This document shows, piece after piece, positions 3,086-46,609 of a stretch of DNA of 64,000 nucleotides. This DNA is from Escherichia coli (GTDB lineage Bacteria; Pseudomonadota; Gammaproteobacteria; Enterobacterales; Enterobacteriaceae). Position numbers and translations under genes: made by a program. The notes beneath the pieces were generated by a model. That model did not search any database. It had not been told where the DNA came from and saw nothing but the letters and a program-made list of their open reading frames with translations. Numbering within the stretch: the first letter of the stretch is position 1; each line of letters opens with the position of its first letter. The DNA is taken from assembly GCF_003334335.1 (NCBI RefSeq), contig NZ_QOWQ01000009.1. One strand, written 5' to 3'.

Positions 3086-4223
3086 TCAGGCGTCACGCGG
3101 TAACCCTTTTTCAATCACCCGAACCAGACGCTGTTTTTTCGGCAATTGCACTTCGACTATGCACGCATTTCGTCTCTCTATTTGCTGCGCAATCGCCCAC
3201 GCTATGTGCTCATCGAGAAGTGGGTGCTCACCTTTACGACTTTCCAGCGCTGTCAAAATCGTTTCATCCCAAGGGGCATTGCCTAATGCTACGGCGATAT
3301 TACGCAGCCAACGCAGGTGACCAATACGACGAATCGCCGATCCTTCCGTGACTTTTAAAAACTTCTCTTCGCTCCAGGCGAATAACTCAATGAGTTCCGG
3401 TGCGTGTAGCGGCTTACGCGGGCTGAAATCCTCTTCTGTGGTGAGTTGTGAATAGCGATTCCACGGGCAGATAAGCTGGCAGTCATCGCAACCGTAAATA
3501 CGGTTTCCCATTAACGGTCGCAACTCTTCCGGGATCGCCCCTTCAAGTTCGATGGTGAGATAAGAGATACAGCGGCGAGCATCGACGGTATATGGCTCGA
3601 CGATGGCACCGGTCGGGCAAATCGTCATACAGGCCACGCATTTGCCGCATCCTTCCTCGACTGGTTGATCCACGGGCAGCGGAATATCGACCAGCAATTC
3701 GCCTAAAAAGAAGAACGAACCGGCCTCGCGATTGAGGATAAGTGAGTGCTTACCTGTCCAGCCGAGCCCAGCTTTTTCAGCTAACGGGCGCTCGAGAATA
3801 GGCGCAGAATCGACAAACGGTCTAAAATTCAGCGAAACACAATGTTGCTGAATCATCTCGCCCAGCTTTTTGAGTCGGTTGCGCAGAAGTTTGTGATAGT
3901 CACGGCCCAGCGCATAACGGCTAACATAGCCGAGTTTGGGGTTTTTCAGCGTGCTGGCAAATGCGGCGTTAGCAGGAAGGTAATTCATCCGCACGCTGAT
4001 CACGCGCAGCGTACCGGGCAATAACTCATGAGGGCGAGCGCGCAGCATACCGTGACGTGCCATCCAGTCCATTTCGCCGTGGTATTGTTTGTCCAGCCAT
4101 GCTTGCAGTTTGGGCTCGGACTCGCTGAGATCGGTATCGGTAATACCTACCTGCTGAAAGCCCAGTTCCAGCCCCCACTGTTTAATTTTTTGCGCTAACT
4201 GATTGAGATCGAGGGGCTCTGAC

Positions 4224-34947: not shown

Positions 34948-35147
34948 AGATACCTCCTCGACGGCTGTTTTTGTGTGCTCTCCTCATGTGGTGATGGTCT
35001 GATTTAATTTTAATCACGGATGAAAAAGTTGATGGCGACCATTTCTGATGCAGTTGTTCAAAAAAACAGCATGATGAAGTGTGATGAACTTCAAATCAGC
35101 GGCTTAGTGGTTATTTGCGAAAGGGGAGATTTATTTCTGCTCTGCCC

Positions 35148-36825: not shown

Positions 36826-37797
36826 TTACTTAGCTGCCTGAATATCAGCCAGCATTGGGGCAAGGGCTGGGTTGTCCTTAGCGAAGTTTGCGTACATTGG
36901 CTGTACTTTCTCGATAAACGGAGCTTTATCTACCTGGTAGACTTTCACGCCCATTTTATCCAGTTTTGCAAATTCTTGTTTCTCTTCCTCGCTCCACAAG
37001 TCTTTCATGTAGCTCATTGATTCTTTAGCTGCTTTTAATATAACTGCCTGATTTTCCTGGCTAAGTTTATCAAACGCAGCATTGCTCATCAGAACCACAT
37101 CGGGAACCATAGTGTGTTCGTCAAGGCTGAAGGATTTTGCCACTTCACCGTGACGCATGGTAGTCAGCGCCATCACGCTGTTTTCTGCCATATCGACCAC
37201 ACCCTGCTGTAAGGCTGTATACAACTCGCCGTAATCCAGTGGCGTCGGGTTACCGCCCATGACTTTGATCATTTCAACTGCGCCAGGGCTTGGCTGGACA
37301 CGGACTTTCATGCCTTTCAGATCGTCTGGTTTCAGTACTGGTTTATTGCCATAGAAACTGCGGGCGCCTCCATCATAAAAAGTCAGCCCGAAATAACCTT
37401 TGCTTTTCGTTGAGTCGAGGATTTTTCTCCCGATATCGCCCTGCATGACCTGATAATAATGATCACGATCGCGGAACAAATAAGGCAGGCTAAATAATTT
37501 ATAGGAATTTTCAAATGCTTCCATTTCTGCCGCATTGGTTTTTACCAGGGGAATAGCGCCAGAACGAATCAGCTCCATTGTTTCTCGTTGAGTACCCAAT
37601 GTTCCATTTGGATAAATACGAATAGTAATATCACCGTTAGAGTACTCTTTGCTCTTTTTCGCAAAGAACTCCATCGCTTTATGAACAGGATGAGACTTAT
37701 CCTGATTATGACTCAGTTTTAATGTCACTGCCCAGGACTGGCTTGCGGATAACATAAGAACAGCACCGATAATGCCAGCGGATACTTTTATTTTCAT
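36826..37797 (-). CDS. TRAP transporter periplasmic solute-binding protein (DctP family)
   Basis: 323 aa, signal peptide MKIKVSAGIIGAVLMLSASQSWA; DctP-like fold with Arg in YDGGARSFYG at the position typical for carboxylate binding; last gene of operon; AT-rich. Confidence 0.8.
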   Translation of the reverse strand: MKIKVSAGIIGAVLMLSASQSWAVTLKLSHNQDKSHPVHKAMEFFAKKSKEYSNGDITIRIYPNGTLGTQRETMELIRSGAIPLVKTNAAEMEAFENSYKLFSLPYLFRDRDHYYQVMQGDIGRKILDSTKSKGYFGLTFYDGGARSFYGNKPVLKPDDLKGMKVRVQPSPGAVEMIKVMGGNPTPLDYGELYTALQQGVVDMAENSVMALTTMRHGEVAKSFSLDEHTMVPDVVLMSNAAFDKLSQENQAVILKAAKESMSYMKDLWSEEEKQEFAKLDKMGVKVYQVDKAPFIEKVQPMYANFAKDNPALAPMLADIQAAK

Positions 37798-37849
37798 AGA
37801 TGTTCCTTTTCTAATAAATATGGCGGCAGGTGCCGCCAGTGAATGCGCA

Positions 37850-39151
37850 TCAGTAGCCCAGTGCTCTTGGCAATGCCATACTGATTTGCGGAATATAGGT
37901 CACCATTGCCAGCACCAATACCATCACGGCATAGAATGGCAGCATAGGTTTGATAATTTTATTAATCGGTAATTTAGATACACTACAACCGACAAATAAC
38001 ACACTGCCTACAGGCGGAGTACAAATACCGATACACATGTTCAGTACCATGACAATACCAAAGTGAATCGGGTCCATGCCCAGTTCGGTGACAACCGGTA
38101 AAAATATCGGCGTAAAAATCAGTACCGCCGGTGTCATATCCATAAAAGTGCCGATAATCAACAGGATAATATTGATAATAAGCAGGATTATTATTGGGTT
38201 GTCAGAAATAGTGTTAAGCAAATCGAGAATCAGGAAGGGAACGTCAGCGTTTGACATTGCCCATGACATACCCATCGAAGAACCAATTAATAACAAGACA
38301 ATTGCAGTGGTAATAACGGATTCCAGAAATATTTTAGGTAAATCTTTAACTGAGATTTCACGATAAAGAACCAGTGCAAGGAAAAGGGTATAAATTACTG
38401 CAATTGCGGAGGCCTCTGTCGGGGTAAAAATACCACTTAATACACCCCCCATAATTAAAATAATCAGGAAAATACTGGGGATAGCCATCCATATCGCAAC
38501 GCCAGCCTGGCGTAAAGTCGGGCGTTCTGGCTTTGGATAACCGCGACGTACCGCGATAATACCGGCTATTACCATCAGTGCCAGACCCAGCAAAATTCCC
38601 GGAACATAACCCGCCAGGAACAGTGCGGCAATAGAAGTACCACCACTGACCAGTGAATAGACGATTAACGTATTACTTGGTGGAATAAGCAAACCCGTCG
38701 GGGCAGAGGCAACGTTAACCGCAGTACTGAATGCCGGGTCGTAACCCTCTTTAACCTGTTGCGGATGCATGACGCCGCCCATCGCAGCCGCCGAAGCCAC
38801 GGCTGAACCAGAAATTGCCCCGAACAGCATATTGGCGAGAATATTACAGTGGGCAAGTGAGCCTGGCAGACGACCGCCGAGAATACGGGCAAAGTTGATT
38901 AATCGTCGCGCTATTCCTCCATGGTTCATAATGTTGCCAGACAAGATAAAAAATGGGATTGCCAACAACGTAAAACTATCTAACCCGGAGGCTAACTTTT
39001 GGGAAACCACACTCAATGCTGAGTTGAAATCGAGTTGTGTGGAAATTGATGCCAGTGTCGATAAACCAATGGCATAAACAATAGGTACACCTAATGCCAA
39101 CATAAAAAAGAAGGCACCAAATAACACAATAATCGGTAACCAGTAATCCAT
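37850..39151 (-). CDS. TRAP transporter large permease (DctM family)
   Basis: 433 aa polytopic membrane protein, typical DctM N-terminus MDYWLPIIVLFGAFFFMLALGVPIVYAIGLSTLA; GGAG SD before ATG; sampled lines about 30% G+C. Confidence 0.85.
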   Translation of the reverse strand: MDYWLPIIVLFGAFFFMLALGVPIVYAIGLSTLASISTQLDFNSALSVVSQKLASGLDSFTLLAIPFFILSGNIMNHGGIARRLINFARILGGRLPGSLAHCNILANMLFGAISGSAVASAAAMGGVMHPQQVKEGYDPAFSTAVNVASAPTGLLIPPSNTLIVYSLVSGGTSIAALFLAGYVPGILLGLALMVIAGIIAVRRGYPKPERPTLRQAGVAIWMAIPSIFLIILIMGGVLSGIFTPTEASAIAVIYTLFLALVLYREISVKDLPKIFLESVITTAIVLLLIGSSMGMSWAMSNADVPFLILDLLNTISDNPIIILLIINIILLIIGTFMDMTPAVLIFTPIFLPVVTELGMDPIHFGIVMVLNMCIGICTPPVGSVLFVGCSVSKLPINKIIKPMLPFYAVMVLVLAMVTYIPQISMALPRALGY

Positions 39152-39193
39152 AATTTCTCCATTCCTACTATGGTTGGTTGTTGTTTGTTATCT

Positions 39194-39694
39194 TTAGAGT
39201 GGTTGTTTAAGTTCGGTTAAAACCATATCTATGGTGTATATAATAATAAGTACACCACTAATCGGGATGCTCATATAGATATATCCCATTTGCCAGCCTA
39301 AAGCGGGCGAGGTCTGACCTGAATCGAATGTATCCATCGTTAATAGCCCACCACCATATACCATAATGATGGTTGCGAAGATAATAACGATAATCTGAAT
39401 ACACAAAAATAAATGACGTCGGGCTTTTCCTTTCAGCATCATAGGTAGCAGGTCAATCGCCAGATGCCGGTTTTGCCCTGCGGTGTATGCCCCACCAAAA
39501 AGTCCAAGACAAATAAAGAGCAAACGGCTGAGTTCATCTGTAAAAATACTGGGACTAGTAAATATAAATCGTGCAGCCACCTGCCACGTCACACATGCCA
39601 CGATGATCGCCAAAATGGTAATGTTCAATGCTGCAAGCAGAGCATTAATAGATCTAATTATATTTCGCATAGTGATTAACCTTTGCAATATCAT
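39194..39694 (-). CDS. TRAP transporter small permease (DctQ family)
   Basis: 166 aa, four hydrophobic segments, size and position typical of DctQ; start ATG overlaps stop of upstream flavoprotein gene (ATGA). Confidence 0.7.
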   Translation of the reverse strand: MILQRLITMRNIIRSINALLAALNITILAIIVACVTWQVAARFIFTSPSIFTDELSRLLFICLGLFGGAYTAGQNRHLAIDLLPMMLKGKARRHLFLCIQIIVIIFATIIMVYGGGLLTMDTFDSGQTSPALGWQMGYIYMSIPISGVLIIIYTIDMVLTELKQPL

Positions 39695-41772
39695 TCATCC
39701 TGTGGCTGGTAAATTGTCCCATTAAGAAAACCAGGCCAGTTTTTTTCAAACCAAATACCTCGGATAATAGGAAACTCACGAACAGGTGTTTCTCTGACGT
39801 GAAAGATACCGTTGCAATAATGAATAAGTAGTTTATCTTTTTTATCCTCAGTACGCTCTGAACGAAAGCGCCAGGCATCACAAAAACCATTTCGTGTTTG
39901 CGGAATAGAATTTCCATCCCTGTCGAGAATAATACGTGCTCCCCGACTACCACCACCTGCGTCAATATAATGCGTTAATTGCGTTAATACGGCGGCAGAA
40001 GTCAGTGCCATATGCCGCCACATAAACAGCTCGGCAACTTCACCCACATGTTTGATAGCCAATCCATGCCGTTGGACAAATTCGCTCAATAGCAGGGCAT
40101 CGCGAGTGGCGCGTCGGACTTTATCGGCATGGCAAATAAATCCCGCATGGTCAGACATTCGTGCCTGAATTTTTTCTCTCACAACCGACAACGGCATCCC
40201 GGTCCCGTTATCGTGCGCCTGAGTAATGATCTCTCTTATAGAAGCCAGTGTAGGAGCTACCAGCTGTGCTATATCTCCATCAATATTCCGCTTTTGCGTG
40301 CAACCAATAAAACGTGCCAGACGAACAGCAAAAACCTGCCCGGCATTCAATGCTGCACCACCAGGGCGAGTGACGCCGTGTGTGCCAGCAACTTCCCCCA
40401 CGGCGAAACAGCCGGGCAGGGAGGTTTGTCCCCAGATATCCACTTCAATGCCGCCATTCATATGCTGATTATTCATGGCAAACTGCAAAGGCTGTGTGGT
40501 GAGATCGTAACCGTGCATCTTATACAGCGAGATAGACAGCGGATTCATTCGTTGCAGCCGTTCGATGGGCGATGGTGCCAGAGCGTCGTTATTTTCCAGA
40601 TACGCGCGAACGTCGTCGTCCAGTCGATCTAATGAGAACGGCAGGTCACCCGGCACCGCTTCAGGATTGCGATTGAAATCCATAAATACCTGACGCCCTG
40701 ATTGCTGCTCTTGCGCTACTGCCATATCTAACAAGCTGGAGCCAAAATCCATCACCCGAGTGGCGTGGAACGGCCACTGATAGCCTTTACGGAAAATGTT
40801 TGAAGCCAGCTCCTGGGTGGTGCGATAGTAATCCGCGAGGAAGTTATACTCGTTACCCTCAGCATCCACGGAATAGATATACGGGATCACCTGTACATAG
40901 GTGCCGGATAAATTCCACGGAAACGTGCTACGCGGCGTGCCTATACCAAACTGGCTTTCGGTCAGATTGGTTAGCGTCAGGCCTTCCTCCAGCGCCAGCC
41001 CCAGCGAGCCAAAACATTTGTGTGGGTACACACTGTCGCGATAAAGCTCGCCAGGCCCTCCTGTTGCCAGTACCACATTGGGCGCAGTCACAATTGCCAG
41101 CCCCCAAGGGTTATGGGCGCGATGACCGGTCGCGAGGATTGCCCCCGCAACACGGTCTTCGCCGTTTTCGTCACGCTGATGCAGCAGTTTAATCACTGTT
41201 GCACTGGTCAACACTGGAATGGCGAGGCGCTGTACTTCTTCCAACAGCACTTTCACCATTAACCTTGAGGTACGCGGCCCACACGAGGTTGCACGCCCGG
41301 CTTCGTCATGGTCGGTTTGATAACGAAGAATCGCGCCATAGCGATCTTCCGGTAATTCCAGACCAAGATATTGCAACCCGCCAAGAGTGTGCAGAGAACC
41401 TACCGCTTCGACATAAGCGGTGTCGTGATCCATCGCCCCACCGCTCGCCAGTGCCTCTGCCAGTTTGGTGAAGTTGTCGCCGTTGCCCGCGGTAGCGGCG
41501 GTAAACAGTGTCTGTTTATCGGAACCAGAACATGCCGACGTCCCCATATATAACCCGGCGGTGGCGATCAGCACATTTTGCTGGCGGCGTTTAAGTTCCA
41601 CAGCTGCACGCAGCCCGGCTGCACCACTGCCGACTACCAGGGCATCTGTTTGCCAGAGTGGGTAATCAACACCGTCTACCGTGACAACCCATGCGGGCTC
41701 TGCCTGTGCAAAACCCTTTGGGAAAGTAACGTGCGTCAGCGCATCAAGGATGGTGTCATCAAGCTGACTCAT
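39691..41772 (-). CDS. FAD-dependent oxidoreductase, fumarate reductase/succinate dehydrogenase flavoprotein-like (693 aa)
   Basis: N-terminal dinucleotide-binding motif ALVVGSGAAGLRAAVEL; C-terminal FAD motif GCFAVGEVAGTHGVTRPGGAALNAGQVFAVRLARFI; no RSHT-type covalent-FAD His motif seen; ATGA overlaps on both sides. Confidence 0.75.
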   Translation of the reverse strand: MSQLDDTILDALTHVTFPKGFAQAEPAWVVTVDGVDYPLWQTDALVVGSGAAGLRAAVELKRRQQNVLIATAGLYMGTSACSGSDKQTLFTAATAGNGDNFTKLAEALASGGAMDHDTAYVEAVGSLHTLGGLQYLGLELPEDRYGAILRYQTDHDEAGRATSCGPRTSRLMVKVLLEEVQRLAIPVLTSATVIKLLHQRDENGEDRVAGAILATGHRAHNPWGLAIVTAPNVVLATGGPGELYRDSVYPHKCFGSLGLALEEGLTLTNLTESQFGIGTPRSTFPWNLSGTYVQVIPYIYSVDAEGNEYNFLADYYRTTQELASNIFRKGYQWPFHATRVMDFGSSLLDMAVAQEQQSGRQVFMDFNRNPEAVPGDLPFSLDRLDDDVRAYLENNDALAPSPIERLQRMNPLSISLYKMHGYDLTTQPLQFAMNNQHMNGGIEVDIWGQTSLPGCFAVGEVAGTHGVTRPGGAALNAGQVFAVRLARFIGCTQKRNIDGDIAQLVAPTLASIREIITQAHDNGTGMPLSVVREKIQARMSDHAGFICHADKVRRATRDALLLSEFVQRHGLAIKHVGEVAELFMWRHMALTSAAVLTQLTHYIDAGGGSRGARIILDRDGNSIPQTRNGFCDAWRFRSERTEDKKDKLLIHYCNGIFHVRETPVREFPIIRGIWFEKNWPGFLNGTIYQPQDE

Positions 41773-43310
41773 GCATCCTCCATCGGCGTAAACAGGCTAC
41801 TTTCCATCAGGCGTGGGTGCTTGATAATTGGACGGAAAGCCATATACGGCAGAATGTCGCGCTCAATCTCCACACCCGGCGCGATTTCAATTAATTCAAC
41901 GCCTTCTGCCGTTAACTGGAATACTGCGCGTTCAGTGATATACAACACTTCCTGACCACTTTGCTGTGCGTAGGCGGCGCTAAAAGTGATTTTTTCCACC
42001 TTGGTAACCAGTTTAGGGATTTGACCTGACTGGGCGATATGCAAGCCATCTGGTGTTATATCGATCTTGCTGCCTTTAGCGTCGAACGTGCCGCAGAACA
42101 CCACTTTACGGGCATTTTGCGCAATTTCGAGAAATCCGCCGGGGCCAATCAGATTGCCATTGAGATGGGAGACGTTGACGTTACCGTACTGATCCATCTC
42201 TCCCATGCCGAGGAAGGTGATATCGATCCCTCCGCCACTGTAGAACTCAAATTGATCGAGTGATGGAATAATGGCATCGGCGTTGCGGGCGCAGCCGAAA
42301 AACGCATCATCCAGCATCATGCCGTTATGTACGCCTTGCTCGACGCTCAGCCATAAACTTTGGTAAGGAACGCCTTCGCGCAGCGCTACTCCTGGAATGC
42401 CGCCGGGAATACCAAAGCCAAAGTTGGTTGAAGCGCCAGCTACCAGTTCGCGTGCTGCCCGACGGGCAATCAGGCGACGTACCGGATGACTAACCAGTTC
42501 AATAGCGTCGTTAGAACTCAGACGGCGATGTTGGCCGCTGATGGTCAGGTCGTAACCGCCAAGATAGGTTTGTGGTTGTTCGCGGTGTTCAACGATGCCA
42601 TCAACCAGAATGCCCGGTAATTTGACCCGGCGTGGTTCAATCGCGCCAGCTTCCAGCACATCGCGTACCTGTACGAACACTTTGCCGCCGCTGTTGTGTG
42701 CTGCCAGCGCCATGGAATAGCTATCCATATCAATCGCTTCTTCTTCAAGGCTGACGTTGCCTCGAGGATCGGCATAAGTGCCACGCAAAATCGCGTAATC
42801 CACTTTGAAAGGGCGATAACGAAGTTTGGTTTCACCGTCGATTTCAATCAGTTCTACCAGCTCGTCGGTAGTGCATTCATTCGACTTACCGCCGCCATTG
42901 CGTGGATCAACAAACGATCCCAGCCCAACGTGGGTAAAAAGCCCCGGACGTCCGGCGCCGATCTCCCGTAGCAGTGCCTGAATCACGCCACCAGGAAAGC
43001 AGTAGGCTTCAATCGTGTTATTTTTTACCAGCGCCTGCATTTTGGGCGACCAGGTAAAGTGCCCGGCAATAATGCGTTTGAGCATCTCTGCGTGCGCAAA
43101 ACGATTAGTGCCTTTGCAGTCGCGATCGCCAATACCCAGCGAGTGGATTAGCGTCAGGTCGCGAGGGTGTCCGGTTTGCAGGAAACGCGCTTCAATAGCA
43201 GCCAGAATATGGTCGGCTTCCACCATACCGCCGCCGTTACCGCTAATAGCAATAGTCGCACCGTCCTGAATTTGCGCCGCCAGTGCCTCGGCGGTTGTTA
43301 TCTTACGCAT
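41769..43310 (-). CDS. family-I CoA-transferase, fused alpha/beta subunits (YdiF / propionate-CoA-transferase-like)
   Basis: 513 aa; GNGGG-containing N-terminus (ATIAISGNGGGMVEADHILAAI) and overall layout of fused 3-oxoacid/acetate CoA-transferases; family call from memory of fold. Confidence 0.7.
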   Translation of the reverse strand: MRKITTAEALAAQIQDGATIAISGNGGGMVEADHILAAIEARFLQTGHPRDLTLIHSLGIGDRDCKGTNRFAHAEMLKRIIAGHFTWSPKMQALVKNNTIEAYCFPGGVIQALLREIGAGRPGLFTHVGLGSFVDPRNGGGKSNECTTDELVELIEIDGETKLRYRPFKVDYAILRGTYADPRGNVSLEEEAIDMDSYSMALAAHNSGGKVFVQVRDVLEAGAIEPRRVKLPGILVDGIVEHREQPQTYLGGYDLTISGQHRRLSSNDAIELVSHPVRRLIARRAARELVAGASTNFGFGIPGGIPGVALREGVPYQSLWLSVEQGVHNGMMLDDAFFGCARNADAIIPSLDQFEFYSGGGIDITFLGMGEMDQYGNVNVSHLNGNLIGPGGFLEIAQNARKVVFCGTFDAKGSKIDITPDGLHIAQSGQIPKLVTKVEKITFSAAYAQQSGQEVLYITERAVFQLTAEGVELIEIAPGVEIERDILPYMAFRPIIKHPRLMESSLFTPMEDA

Positions 43311-43319
43311 ACAATTTCC

Positions 43320-44102
43320 TTATTGATTATGGAAGCTCACGCTACTTTTTTCGGCAAAGGCGCGCGTCGCCTGCTGGCAATCCTGAGTGGCAGACATTAA
43401 TCCGGCCAGTAGCTGGTGCGGGTAATCGGCATGTTTATTTTCCAGTGCCAGAATCAGTTGCTTAATATGCGCCAGTGCCACCGGGCCGCATTTTTCCAGC
43501 TGCGCTAACTGGTTCGCCATCCAGCTTTCCACCTGTTCTTTTTCTACCACTTCATCAATTAAATTCGCCGCCTGGGCTTCCTGCGCCGTCAGGCGTTTAC
43601 CCAGCATCAGCATCTGGCGACCGACCACCGGACCAACCTGATTAAGCACACGTTCAATGCCCATCCAGCCAGGCACCATGCCGAGCATCACTTCCGGGTT
43701 AGAGAATTTCGCGCCGGGGCGGGCAATACGAATATCGCAGCACAAGGCCAGTTCAATACCACCGCCGATGGTATGACCGTTGAGATTCGCAACGGTTAAT
43801 TGGGGTAAGTTTCGCAGGCGATTAAAAACGTCATTACCGCGTTTAATCCATTTTCTGCCCATATCTAATGGCGAATAGGCCGACCACGATTTAATATCGC
43901 CGCCCGCACAAAAGAATTTATCGCCGGTTGCCGTTAATTCGACTAATCGTAATGTGGTGTCGTTTTCAATTTCATTTAAATAATGGTCGAGAGATTCGAT
44001 CATCTCTTCGTTAATAGCATGACATTTATCTTCACGGTTCAATGTCAGGCGGCAGGAAGCCGCCGCTCTGCTGAACAGAACGGGTTGGTCACTCATGATC
44101 AT
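43320..44102 (-). CDS. enoyl-CoA hydratase/isomerase (crotonase fold)
   Basis: 260 aa; oxyanion-hole motif FCAGGDIK, catalytic Glu motifs GGGIELALCCDIRIA and FSNPEVMLGMVPGWMG. Confidence 0.8.
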   Translation of the reverse strand: MIMSDQPVLFSRAAASCRLTLNREDKCHAINEEMIESLDHYLNEIENDTTLRLVELTATGDKFFCAGGDIKSWSAYSPLDMGRKWIKRGNDVFNRLRNLPQLTVANLNGHTIGGGIELALCCDIRIARPGAKFSNPEVMLGMVPGWMGIERVLNQVGPVVGRQMLMLGKRLTAQEAQAANLIDEVVEKEQVESWMANQLAQLEKCGPVALAHIKQLILALENKHADYPHQLLAGLMSATQDCQQATRAFAEKSSVSFHNQ

Positions 44103-44105
44103 TCC

Positions 44106-44948
44106 TTAACAATAATGCGCGATGCGATCGACGCTAATATCCAGCGTGCTGTTAATATCTTTTTGCCACCAGTACGGCGAGAATATTTCCAGTTCAATAG
44201 CGCCATTAAATCCGGCGTTTTCAACCAGCCGACGAATTGACGGAATATTGATGACGCCATCTCCCGGCATACCACGGTCATTGACCAGATCAGTGGTCGG
44301 CACTAACCAGTCGGAAACATGAAACGCGAGGATGCGTTTTCCGGCACGCAGGATCTGACTGGCGAGATCCGGATCCCACCAGACGTGATAAACATCCACC
44401 GCCACGCCGAGGCCAAACTCACCATCGGGATCGAGTTCATCACACCAGTCCAGCGCCTGGCGTAACGTGCACAGGCAAGAGCGATCGGCAGCTGTCATCG
44501 GGTGCAGTGGCTCCAGCGCAATTGGCACGCCGACATCTTTCGAATGTGGCAGCAACTGGCGAATCCCTTGTTTCACTTGTTCTCGCGCTTCATATAGATC
44601 TTTAGTGCCCGTTGGCAGACCGCCAACCACCTGCATATAACAGGCGGCGTTAAGCACCGCTGCGTCGTCCAGCGCCCGGCGGTTATCATCAATCGCCAGT
44701 TTGCGTTCCGCCAGTGTCGGCGCGGTGTAGTAAGTGCTACGGCACAAACCGGAAACGCTCATGTTACTGGCGGCAAGCTGGTGGGCGATTTGCTGGAGAT
44801 CTTCACCTTGCAACTCCCTGCGCCAGGGAGCAATCGCGCCAATACCACGCGCGGCGCAGGCATCAATAATGGCGGGTAGCGGCGTTTTATAGCCCAGTGT
44901 TGCGGTATTGATACTGAATAAATCCGGGCGTTGTAACAGATCTCTCAT
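44106..44948 (-). CDS. sugar-phosphate isomerase/epimerase, xylose-isomerase-like TIM barrel
   Basis: 280 aa; conserved metal-ligand pattern of the family (IALEPLHP, DVYHVWWD, AIELEIF); the same fold as UlaE in this window but clearly a different sequence. Confidence 0.7.
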   Translation of the reverse strand: MRDLLQRPDLFSINTATLGYKTPLPAIIDACAARGIGAIAPWRRELQGEDLQQIAHQLAASNMSVSGLCRSTYYTAPTLAERKLAIDDNRRALDDAAVLNAACYMQVVGGLPTGTKDLYEAREQVKQGIRQLLPHSKDVGVPIALEPLHPMTAADRSCLCTLRQALDWCDELDPDGEFGLGVAVDVYHVWWDPDLASQILRAGKRILAFHVSDWLVPTTDLVNDRGMPGDGVINIPSIRRLVENAGFNGAIELEIFSPYWWQKDINSTLDISVDRIAHYC

Positions 44949-44957
44949 GATTCAGCC

Positions 44958-45749
44958 TCAGAAGCGCGGCATACTTAAGCCGCCGTCGATGGCGACCGCC
45001 TGACCACAGGTGTAAATCAGTTTACCTTCCGCCATCGCGCGGACAGTGGAAGCAATATCAGCCGGATAACCCCAACGTCCCCACGGCACCAGACCTTTGG
45101 CAATCAGTTCGTCGTAATAAGCCGTTGCCGGAATAGTCATATCAGTTTTGATGAGACCTGGGCGCACTTCATAAACGCCAATTTGTTCATTACAAAGGCG
45201 AGCTGCAAATAGACGAGCAGCGGCAGAAACGGCGGTTTTGGCAATGGTGTATTCGCCGCGATTCATCGCCAGCATGATGGCGTTGATGGAACTGACGAAA
45301 ATAATCGAGCGGTGCGGCAGTTCCGCTTCCGGTTTCGGCTGTGCCAGTAAACGCTTACTGAATGCCTGAGCAAGGAAGAACGGCGCGCGGGTGTTAATGG
45401 CAATGTTTTGATCGAAGCTGTCTGGTTCGAGGTCGAGGAGGTCACCGCGTTTTTTCACTGAAATGCCTGCGTTGTTGAGCAGGCAGTCCAGACGTCCCCA
45501 CAGGTTTTGCGCCGCGTCGAGCATCTCTTCATGCAAGGAGAGATCGCCGACATCGGCAGGGAAGCAAATCACTTCCACGCCTTCAGCTATACATTCTTGT
45601 TGTGTGATATGCAGTTTTTCTACGCTGTCGGCATCGGGAAGATCGTTAATCAGCAGGTTAAATCCGCCACGAGCAAGCTCCAGCGCACAGCCCTTTCCAA
45701 TACCACGAGCGGCTCCGGTAATCACGGCAACAGGACGAGTGGATTTCAT
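44958..45749 (-). CDS. short-chain dehydrogenase/reductase (SDR), first gene of accessory operon
   Basis: TGAARGIGKG cofactor motif, NNAG, catalytic YTIAK; ORF track begins at a TTG (45791); first ATG at 45749 gives the usual spacing before the Gly motif. Confidence 0.85.
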   Translation of the reverse strand: MKSTRPVAVITGAARGIGKGCALELARGGFNLLINDLPDADSVEKLHITQQECIAEGVEVICFPADVGDLSLHEEMLDAAQNLWGRLDCLLNNAGISVKKRGDLLDLEPDSFDQNIAINTRAPFFLAQAFSKRLLAQPKPEAELPHRSIIFVSSINAIMLAMNRGEYTIAKTAVSAAARLFAARLCNEQIGVYEVRPGLIKTDMTIPATAYYDELIAKGLVPWGRWGYPADIASTVRAMAEGKLIYTCGQAVAIDGGLSMPRF

Positions 45750-45795
45750 ACAATAGCTCTCTTTTTTTGAATATTGTTTTCTAAGTGACAATTAG

Positions 45796-45839
45796 CTTGC
45801 GACGTGCCGCAAGAAAGATCAACCATCTGGTTGGTTGAT
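45796..45839. promoter_or_regulatory. two adjacent palindromes in the divergent control region between the accessory operon and its TetR gene (candidate operators)
   Basis: CTTGCG-ACGTGC-CGCAAG (45796-45813) and ATCAACCA-TCTGGT-TGGTTGAT (45818-45839, with nested AACCA-TC-TGGTT); read directly. Confidence 0.5.
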
Positions 45840-45961
45840 ATGCGATAGTGATCACAGGACATTTGATAACTTGATGAAAGTACAAGTTTTTATCCTTTTT
45901 ACTGGAGCTTCTAATTAATCGGGTTAAGATAGTTATCTTGAAGAGGTCGTGGGGAAGCGTT

Positions 45962-46609
45962 ATGTATCTTGATACCAGCAACGTACAGAGCCTGAAGGAA
46001 AAGCTGCTGTTATGCGCGGTTAATGAATTTGCCGAATATGGTTATGAAGGGGCCAGGGTCGATAATATTGTTAAGGCTGCGGGGTGTAGTAAACAGACGG
46101 TTTATCATCACTTTGGTAATAAAGAAAATTTATTTATTGAAGTACTGGAATATACCTGGAACGATATTCGACAAAAAGAAAAGGCCCTTGATTTCTCAGA
46201 TCTTCCGCCACAAAAAGCCATTGAGAAAATTATTGATTTTACATGGGATTATTATATTGCTAATCCCTGGTTTTTAAAAATTGTGCATAGTGAAAATCAA
46301 AGTAAAGGTGTGCATTATGCAAAATCACAGCGTCTCTTAGAAATTAACCATGCGCACTTGCAGTTAATGGAATCCTTATTGGATGAAGGGAAGAAACACA
46401 ATATTTTTAAGCCAGATATCGACCCATTGCAGGTGAATATTAATATTGCTGCGCTTGGCGGATATTATTTGATCAACCAGCATACGCTTGGCCTGGTTTA
46501 TCATATCAGTATGGTTTCCCCCCAGGCACTGGAAGCCAGACGTAAGGTCATCAAAGAGACAATCCTTAGCTGGCTTTTGGTTGACCCTTCATCTACCGCG
46601 CACGAATAA
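45962..46609 (+). CDS. TetR-family transcriptional regulator
   Basis: N-terminal [47 protein letters not shown]; ORF track start 45938 is TTG, first ATG at 45962; 3' end overlaps ytfB 3' end by 17 nt. Confidence 0.8.

Follow-up and report, generated by a model that had tools for sequence, protein, structure and literature searches.

The DNA between a TetR-family regulator gene and its divergent neighboring operon, in a stretch of 64,000 nt from Escherichia coli (the window, meaning the whole of the DNA analysed here), contains one palindrome, P2, that is conserved, single-copy and fixed in position, and a second palindrome, P1, that is not conserved. Comparison of orthologous sequences suggests that P2 is probably an operator bound by the adjacent regulator, the full-length form of YtfA, which would thereby repress a CRP-dependent promoter of the operon, and that P1 arose by chance. 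An initial annotation of this DNA had proposed both palindromes as TetR operators in a divergent region of ~210 nt. Re-reading of the sequence confirmed the presence of the two dyads exactly as described, in position and in sequence, and the spacer (45750-45961) measures 212 nt between the ATG codons of the SDR gene (45749, - strand) and the TetR gene (45962, + strand), whose start positions agree with the RefSeq gene calls. Conservation at orthologous loci, the check that the annotation itself had named, strongly bears out P2 as an operator candidate, whereas P1 fails it and does not exceed chance level. The features referred to in the text are the following.

36826-45749, - strand: the regulated operon, between rplI and ytfB; in order of transcription its genes encode an SDR, a TIM-barrel enzyme, an enoyl-CoA hydratase, a CoA-transferase, an FAD oxidoreductase, DctQ, DctM and DctP
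39691-41772, - strand: gene of the FAD oxidoreductase (693 aa), distantly related to fumarate reductase and L-aspartate oxidase flavoproteins
44958-45749, - strand: SDR gene, the first gene of the long - strand cluster
45794-45799, - strand: predicted operon -10, CAAGCT, with a predicted TSS near 45787
45796-45801 and 45808-45813: arms of the P1 dyad, CTTGCG-N6-CGCAAG, non-conserved and allele-specific, in the spacer between the predicted -35 and -10
45817-45822, - strand: predicted operon -35, TTGATC, inside or overlapping P2 and invariant in 17/18 loci
45818-45825 and 45832-45839: arms of the P2 dyad, ATCAACCA-N6-TGGTTGAT, operator candidate for full-length YtfA, the TetR encoded alongside
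45841-45856: CRP site, TGCGA-TAGTGA-TCACA; the full 22-mer occupies 45838-45859 and is centred at 45848.5
45925-45930, + strand: predicted tetR -10, TAAGAT, with a conserved G at 45923 (-14) and a predicted TSS near 45937
45962-46609, + strand: gene of the TetR-family regulator (215 aa, RefSeq annotation), the full-length form of the K-12 pseudogene ytfA

Conservation of the P2 palindrome

The frequency of dyads expected by chance was estimated from 5000 dinucleotide-preserving shuffles of the spacer. In 45% of the shuffles there was a dyad whose arms measured 6 nt or more with 12 nt or less between them, and the mean was 0.75 per shuffle. Arms of at least 8 nt were seen in 3.2% of them, which makes P2 only modestly unusual on its own. 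The spacer contains several further 6-nt dyads absent from the initial annotation, namely AACTTG-N9-CAAGTT (45868-45888), AAGATA-GT-TATCTT (45926-45939) and GTGATCAC (45849-45856), and symmetry alone therefore cannot identify an operator here.

We compared 18 loci, made up of 15 orthologous loci and three further E. coli alleles. A scan of a genome collection yielded six true orthologous loci, and the remainder were obtained by exact-protein look-ups. The spacer alignment comprised the 15 loci, and column identity was scored on 11 non-redundant lineages. The TetR orthologs (57-99% identity) come from Escherichia, Salmonella, Citrobacter, Klebsiella, Lelliottia, Leminorella, Entomohabitans and metagenome contigs. 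All ortholog loci share the same gene order of SDR, TIM-barrel enzyme, enoyl-CoA hydratase and CoA-transferase, divergent from tetR, and the TetR gene is the only regulator gene that is linked to the operon at every locus, even where the other neighbors differ.

P2 is a 22-bp near-palindrome with the core AACCAtCTgGtTGGTT (45821-45836) and a dyad axis between 45828 and 45829. Its 22 columns have a mean identity of 0.90 compared with 0.66 for the whole spacer (11 lineages), and the top-ranked 22-nt conservation windows start at 45813-45818, on P2. The palindrome is conserved alongside the regulator in 18/18 loci, in most of them as the near-perfect 22-bp form ATCAACCAtCTAGtTGGTTGAT; the CAACC and GTTGGTT elements are invariant across the aligned loci, and between 7 and 10 of the 11 symmetric pairs are kept in all 15 of these.

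The same picture emerged from the alleles found within E. coli. Among 5426 complete genomes, 3134 (~58%), ST131 included, carry the spacer, which falls into classes of at least 99% (~1460 genomes), ~85% (~1229 genomes, including ST131) and ~79% identity (~362 genomes). Both divergent classes carry P2 as ATCAACCATCTAGTTGGTTGAT. The CTAG-centred form, which is also present in Citrobacter, Lelliottia and Leminorella, is symmetric at 10/11 pairs, the value obtained for Citrobacter, Lelliottia and the ST131-type E. coli allele. The CTGG centre of the window's allele accounts for its 9/11 pairs and for the nested dyad described in the initial annotation. This dyad is indeed present, but with arms of 6+6 nt (CAACCA-TC-TGGTTG, 45820-45833) instead of the AACCA/TGGTT originally given, and only 5/7 of its pairs are kept in most orthologs.

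Owing to the GGTTGGTT repeat, two symmetry axes located 2 bp apart can be drawn through P2. Axis A, AACCAnC-TA-GnTGGTT, can be extended to ATCAACCA...TGGTTGAT and occurs in all loci with 7-10/11 pairs. Axis B, CAACC-N4-GGTTG, is perfect in the window's allele and in both sites of L023, a metagenome locus with a 57%-identical TetR, and imperfect in most orthologs. We favour axis A over axis B as the likely register of P2.

The motif CAACC-N5-GTTGGTT is found once per ~8.6-kb ortholog locus and always in the spacer (16 loci; two sites in L023). It was not found in eight loci of unrelated TetRs, and the 64-kb window contains no other good match to the P2 motif. P2 lies 66-73 nt from the SDR start codon everywhere except in L023 (81 nt); its distance from the tetR start is 107-141 nt, and 337 nt in Entomohabitans. 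The spacer of Entomohabitans teleogrylli (L006, 3577-4000) measures 423 nt instead of the usual ~210 nt, with an extra GC-rich segment of ~210 nt between the CRP/operator module and tetR, which has its own TATATAAT-like -10. Despite this insertion on the tetR side, P2 stays beside the SDR gene. L023 carries a second copy of the site, AACCAACC-ATTC-GGTTGGTT, ~50 nt closer to the SDR gene. One of its two copies (3825-3844 and 3874-3890) lies over the predicted -35, and the other covers the predicted TSS, just past the predicted -10. A site over the TSS is a classic repressor position.

Two Dam GATC sites, one at the operator and -35 (45817-45820) and one inside the CRP site (45850-45853), are spaced 33 bp apart and conserved in most orthologs. 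They are probably incidental to the binding motifs, and methylation at these sites could in principle affect binding.

The regulator encoded beside P2

The regulator comprises the Pfam domains TetR_N (PF00440) and TetR_C_29 (PF17938). Its AlphaFold2 model (pLDDT 91.8) is all helical, combining an N-terminal HTH with an all-helical C-terminal ligand domain, and the Foldseek matches are all TetR-family proteins. The residues of the HTH are nearly invariant among the orthologs, which fits the invariant half-sites of P2; as the arms of P2 do not vary, they offer no covariation between protein and site to exploit.

The gene is truncated in other E. coli lineages. In K-12-type strains (such as L028, 1436-2903), rplI and yjfZ are followed by a TetR gene without its N-terminus, and the K-12 pseudogene ytfA corresponds to the 3' 62% of the gene (nt 246-648). 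The K-12-type locus contains neither the nine-gene operon nor the spacer nor the part of the gene that encodes the HTH, and yjfZ (DUF2686) adjoins rplI. Many EHEC-type genomes contain a shorter ytfA fragment (nt 246-541). Consistent with this distribution, a survey of TetR-family factors in Gram-negative bacteria named ytfA as a TetR gene in only some E. coli strains (PMC6790063).

NCBIfam contains no curated equivalog for the TetR protein. Its nearest solved relatives, judged by sequence and fold, are an uncharacterized C. diphtheriae TetR, RutR and SCO proteins, followed more weakly by FadR, PfmR and KstR2. The initial annotation had suggested the pathway substrate or a CoA intermediate as the likely inducing ligand; these neighbors are generic TetRs and neither support nor refute a CoA-thioester as the inducer.

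It is unlikely that P2 is conserved for a different factor, such as RutR or another global regulator, rather than for the adjacent TetR. RutR is among the closest fold neighbors of the protein, and the RutR box, which we take to be TTGACCAnnTGGTCAA with the core ACCA-NN-TGGT, shares this core with the nested dyad of the window's allele, CAACCAtcTGGTTG. However, only ~9/14 specified positions of the box are matched, and in that register most orthologs read TAGT and not TGGT. Moreover, P2 strictly co-occurs, as a single copy, with the TetR gene across differing neighbors, and no other regulator is consistently linked to it. We infer from this association that YtfA is the protein that binds P2.

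CRP site and predicted promoters

Immediately beside P2, 0-1 nt away at every locus, is a CRP site, TGCGATAGTGATCACA, which was absent from the initial annotation. The site has one core mismatch to TGTGA-N6-TCACA; there are 0-2 core mismatches in all 18 orthologs, and the site of Leminorella is perfect. A CRP ChIP-seq peak has been reported for ETEC H10407 at position 4940903, between ETEC_4557 and ETEC_4558 (ytfA), with the site TGTGATCACTATCGCA (Haycocks et al. 2015, PMC4287617, Table 1). The peak is listed as 'ETEC-specific/ytfA' and was not followed up in that paper (PMC4287617). The CRP site of the window is the exact reverse complement of TGTGATCACTATCGCA, that is, an identical 16-mer; in vivo CRP occupancy has thus already been published for the identical site in ETEC H10407. 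Another CRP ChIP-seq site of the same study (peak 4930149; PMC4287617), TGTGATGAACTTCAAA, is found at 35080-35095, between yjfY and rpsF. The two peaks are 10,754 nt apart, matching the spacing of ~10,761 nt in the window.

The predicted operon promoter lies on the - strand. In all 18 loci, the distance from TTGATC to a -10-like hexamer is a constant 17 nt, and the orthologs read CATCTT, CATTTT, CATCGT or TAAGTT at the latter. The alignment is ungapped between the -10-like hexamer and the operator, and the conserved -10 columns are the equivalents of A-11 and T-7 (45798 and 45794, each with an identity of at least 0.9). Numbered from the predicted TSS, P2 reaches from about -52 to -31, a stretch that includes the predicted -35 hexamer, and the CRP site is centred at -61.5, or at -60.5 in four loci with a 1-nt shorter gap. 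The position -61.5 is the canonical one for class I CRP activation (Busby and Ebright). Class I sites may also be centred near -71.5, -82.5 or -92.5. A consensus promoter scan at its thresholds found no sigma-70 promoter in the spacer. This outcome is attributable to CAAGCT, which matches the -10 consensus at only 2/6 positions, as would be expected for a weak, activator-dependent -10. The assignment of the putative operon promoter rests on conservation and geometry.

In the mechanism that we propose, the spacer would consist of two back-to-back promoters, of which the operon promoter (- strand) would be a CRP-dependent class I promoter composed of the -35 TTGATC, a 17-nt spacer and the -10 CAAGCT, with transcription starting at ~45787. 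Full-length YtfA bound to P2 would cover the -35 hexamer together with the DNA between the -35 and the CRP site. Because P2 lies over the predicted -35 and the DNA on which the alpha-CTD would dock, the bound repressor should block sigma-70 region 4 as well as alpha-CTD docking; with its operator between the CRP site and the -35, the TetR may in part be an anti-activator of CRP. A small-molecule inducer would release YtfA from P2, and the operon would be on only with the inducer present and cAMP-CRP high.

Some TetR-family proteins, although a minority, activate transcription, and P2 and the CRP site are separated by no more than 1 nt in every locus, as might be expected if YtfA were an activator or a co-activator with CRP. 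We nevertheless consider such a role quite improbable: P2 overlaps the predicted -35 hexamer instead of lying upstream of it, the second site of L023 is positioned over the predicted TSS, and repression is the usual role of TetR-family regulators of divergent catabolic operons.

P1, in turn, spans -26 to -9 of the predicted promoter and thus consists of non-conserved promoter spacer and the edge of the -10. Its conservation (mean identity 0.63) ranks 112 of 195 windows (11 lineages). Among the 15 aligned loci, all six pairs are present only in the window's allele; 4/6 pairs are kept in E. coli E69, E. whittamii and L024 (GCA_020555995), and 0-2/6 in the remaining eleven. Neither the ST131-type nor the JL05-type E. 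coli alleles (~1,590 genomes in total) have the dyad, and the two divergent E. coli allele classes read CTTGCGACTGGAGGATAA and CTTGCGACTGGCAGGTAA in its place. P1 is also unremarkable in size, as dyads of this kind are expected by chance (P=0.45). That P1 and P2 are both TetR operators, giving two-site control as in Tn10 tetO1/tetO2, is therefore highly improbable. Both dyads are real; 4 nt separate them, and both are part of the predicted promoter. The P1 dyad, however, has not survived in E. coli E69, E. whittamii or E. albertii, in the ST131-type and JL05-type alleles or in any other genus. Its half-site CTTGCG is unrelated to the P2 half-site ATCAACCA, so that one TetR would not read both. 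In L023, the only locus with a true second operator, that operator is a second CAACC/GGTTG copy, and nothing resembling P1 is present. We conclude that P1 is a chance symmetry inside the promoter spacer and not an operator.

P2 is very unlikely to be an RNA hairpin, whether a 5'-leader structure or, on the - strand, an intrinsic terminator that would stop transcripts reading through from ytfB, antisense to tetR. A terminator scan does flag it (8-bp stem and 6-nt loop, then CTTTCTT), and the hairpin folds at -9 kcal/mol (z=-3.4). Yet it is the sequence and not just the pairing that is conserved (invariant arms, a conserved CTAG loop centre and no compensatory changes). Only 3/8 pairs are G-C, the T-tract CTTTCTT is weak and interrupted, and ytfB, the nearest co-oriented upstream gene, ends ~750 nt away. 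P2 is kept in loci without ytfB downstream of tetR (Leminorella and metagenome loci), and it lies upstream of the predicted TSS and would not be transcribed from the operon promoter. An Rfam search at a permissive E-value gave only a meaningless viral match.

On the opposite side of the spacer, the predicted tetR -10 is replaced by TATGAT, TATAGT or TATAAT in nearly all orthologs, and the columns T45925, A45926, T45930 and G45923 each have an identity of at least 0.9. A search with the P2 motif throughout the 64-kb window found no operator-like sequence near this -10. The candidate operator P2 is located on the predicted operon -35, ~100-120 nt upstream of the predicted tetR promoter, and autoregulation by occlusion is thus unsupported. 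The initial annotation had viewed the spacer as a control region shared by both divergent transcription units; this view is upheld for the operon, but the sequence does not support tetR autoregulation. Two of the additional dyads, at 45868-45888 and 45926-45939, were considered as autoregulatory operators and rejected, being unconserved (mean identity 0.66 and 0.63). The latter, AAGATA-GT-TATCTT, results from a T-to-A change in the tetR -10 of the window's allele (TATGAT to TAAGAT), a change that is likely to make the tetR promoter of this allele class weaker. Taken together, these features fit a promoter, a CRP site and a single operator serving the operon better than a divergent control region with two operators.

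Two further observations concern the surroundings of tetR. On the tetR side of the CRP site lies a moderately conserved block, TTGATAAC-N4-TGA (45863-45877), in which T45867, A45868, A45869, T45875 and G45876 each have an identity of at least 0.9; possible identities are a second tetR promoter (of the TTGATA...T-rich type), an UP-like element and the site of another factor. At the distal end, the coding regions of tetR (+ strand) and ytfB (- strand) converge and overlap by 17 nt (46593-46609), which leaves no room for an intervening terminator.

The operon and related regulatory systems

The enzymes encoded by the operon include a TIM-barrel protein annotated as 'sugar phosphate isomerase/epimerase' (AP_endonuc_2) and a YdiF-type CoA-transferase, and DctQ, DctM and DctP form a TRAP transporter. 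The most unusual enzyme is the 693-aa FAD oxidoreductase, which has no PDB relative at E<=1e-10 and scores far below the NCBIfam cut-offs; NCBIfam provides no equivalog for the TIM-barrel enzyme or for this flavoprotein. The closest solved relatives of the TRAP binding protein are 4ovr, 4x8r, 4n8y and 4n15, presumably hexuronate binders, which we regard as a lead only. A literature search retrieved no paper on the pathway or substrate of the operon, and searches on the operon, its regulator and the sequence of the operator retrieved no functional study and no binding, footprint, TSS or expression data. The operon has never been studied because K-12 does not contain it.

Some copies of the island carry defects. 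The CoA-transferase gene is frameshifted in ATCC 8739 (L001, 8871-10411) and the SDR gene in YZ22PE68 (L027, 1-60), and L024 (GCA_020555995) contains many split genes. These defects may reflect decay of the island in some lineages or low quality of some assemblies.

The arrangement resembles that of Tn10 TetR/tetO, where a TetR-family HTH repressor is likewise encoded divergently from the gene that it controls, the operator is a palindrome overlapping core promoter elements (here predicted) and induction occurs by ligand-driven release (here expected). It differs from Tn10 in having, in most species, a single 22-bp operator that is located only on the predicted -35 of the target, in the lack of an operator at the regulator's own predicted promoter, in the additional CRP layer and in a half-site unrelated to tetO. 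RutR and the rut operon provide a second parallel, as RutR is an E. coli TetR-family protein encoded divergently from a catabolic operon and has a similar fold (TM ~0.72-0.81). Sequence identity to RutR, however, is ~21%, the flanking operator bases differ, the ACCA-NN-TGGT register is unconserved in most orthologs, and the uracil/thymine ligand of RutR has no evident link to the enzymes of the present operon.

A further resemblance is to the acyl-CoA-responsive TetR repressors Bacillus FadR (YsiA), Thermus PfmR and Mycobacterium KstR2, which regulate operons encoding CoA-transferase, enoyl-CoA hydratase and SDR-type enzymes. Their weak sequence similarity to the TetR described here reaches into the ligand domain (E 1e-5 to 1e-11), and some pipelines auto-annotate the Salmonella orthologs as 'KstR2'. 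The NCBIfam scores of the protein, however, lie far below the cut-offs (46 bits for FadR against a cut-off of 200); FadR, PfmR and KstR2 ranked below RutR and uncharacterized TetRs in the fold search, and their operator motifs differ from P2.

The regulatory logic is reminiscent of that of lac, with class I CRP at a predicted -61.5 and a pathway-specific repressor combining to give 'inducer present AND glucose absent'. In contrast to lac, the predicted operator is situated between the CRP site and the -35 (-52 to -31) and not downstream of the TSS, and the repressor belongs to the TetR and not the LacI family. The position of the operator suggests interference with the alpha-CTD and the -35, that is, anti-activation, besides plain occlusion. 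The design as such is conventional, a local TetR repressor together with catabolite activation constituting ordinary dual control.

We suggest, tentatively, that the YtfA operator and the CRP site could together form the switch for a nine-gene, CoA-dependent carboxylate pathway that was lost from K-12. The regulatory map obtained here concerns an accessory E. coli operon and is precise enough to be tested base by base: it tells which palindrome to mutate, predicts two TSSs and accounts for a CRP ChIP-seq peak that had been published without further examination. The operator and YtfA also amount to a ready-made biosensor design for the substrate of the operon, and if the proposed regulation is true, the substrate would be directly screenable by a reporter. 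The main value of these results lies in the precise starting point they provide for establishing the function of a widespread, non-K-12 E. coli operon.
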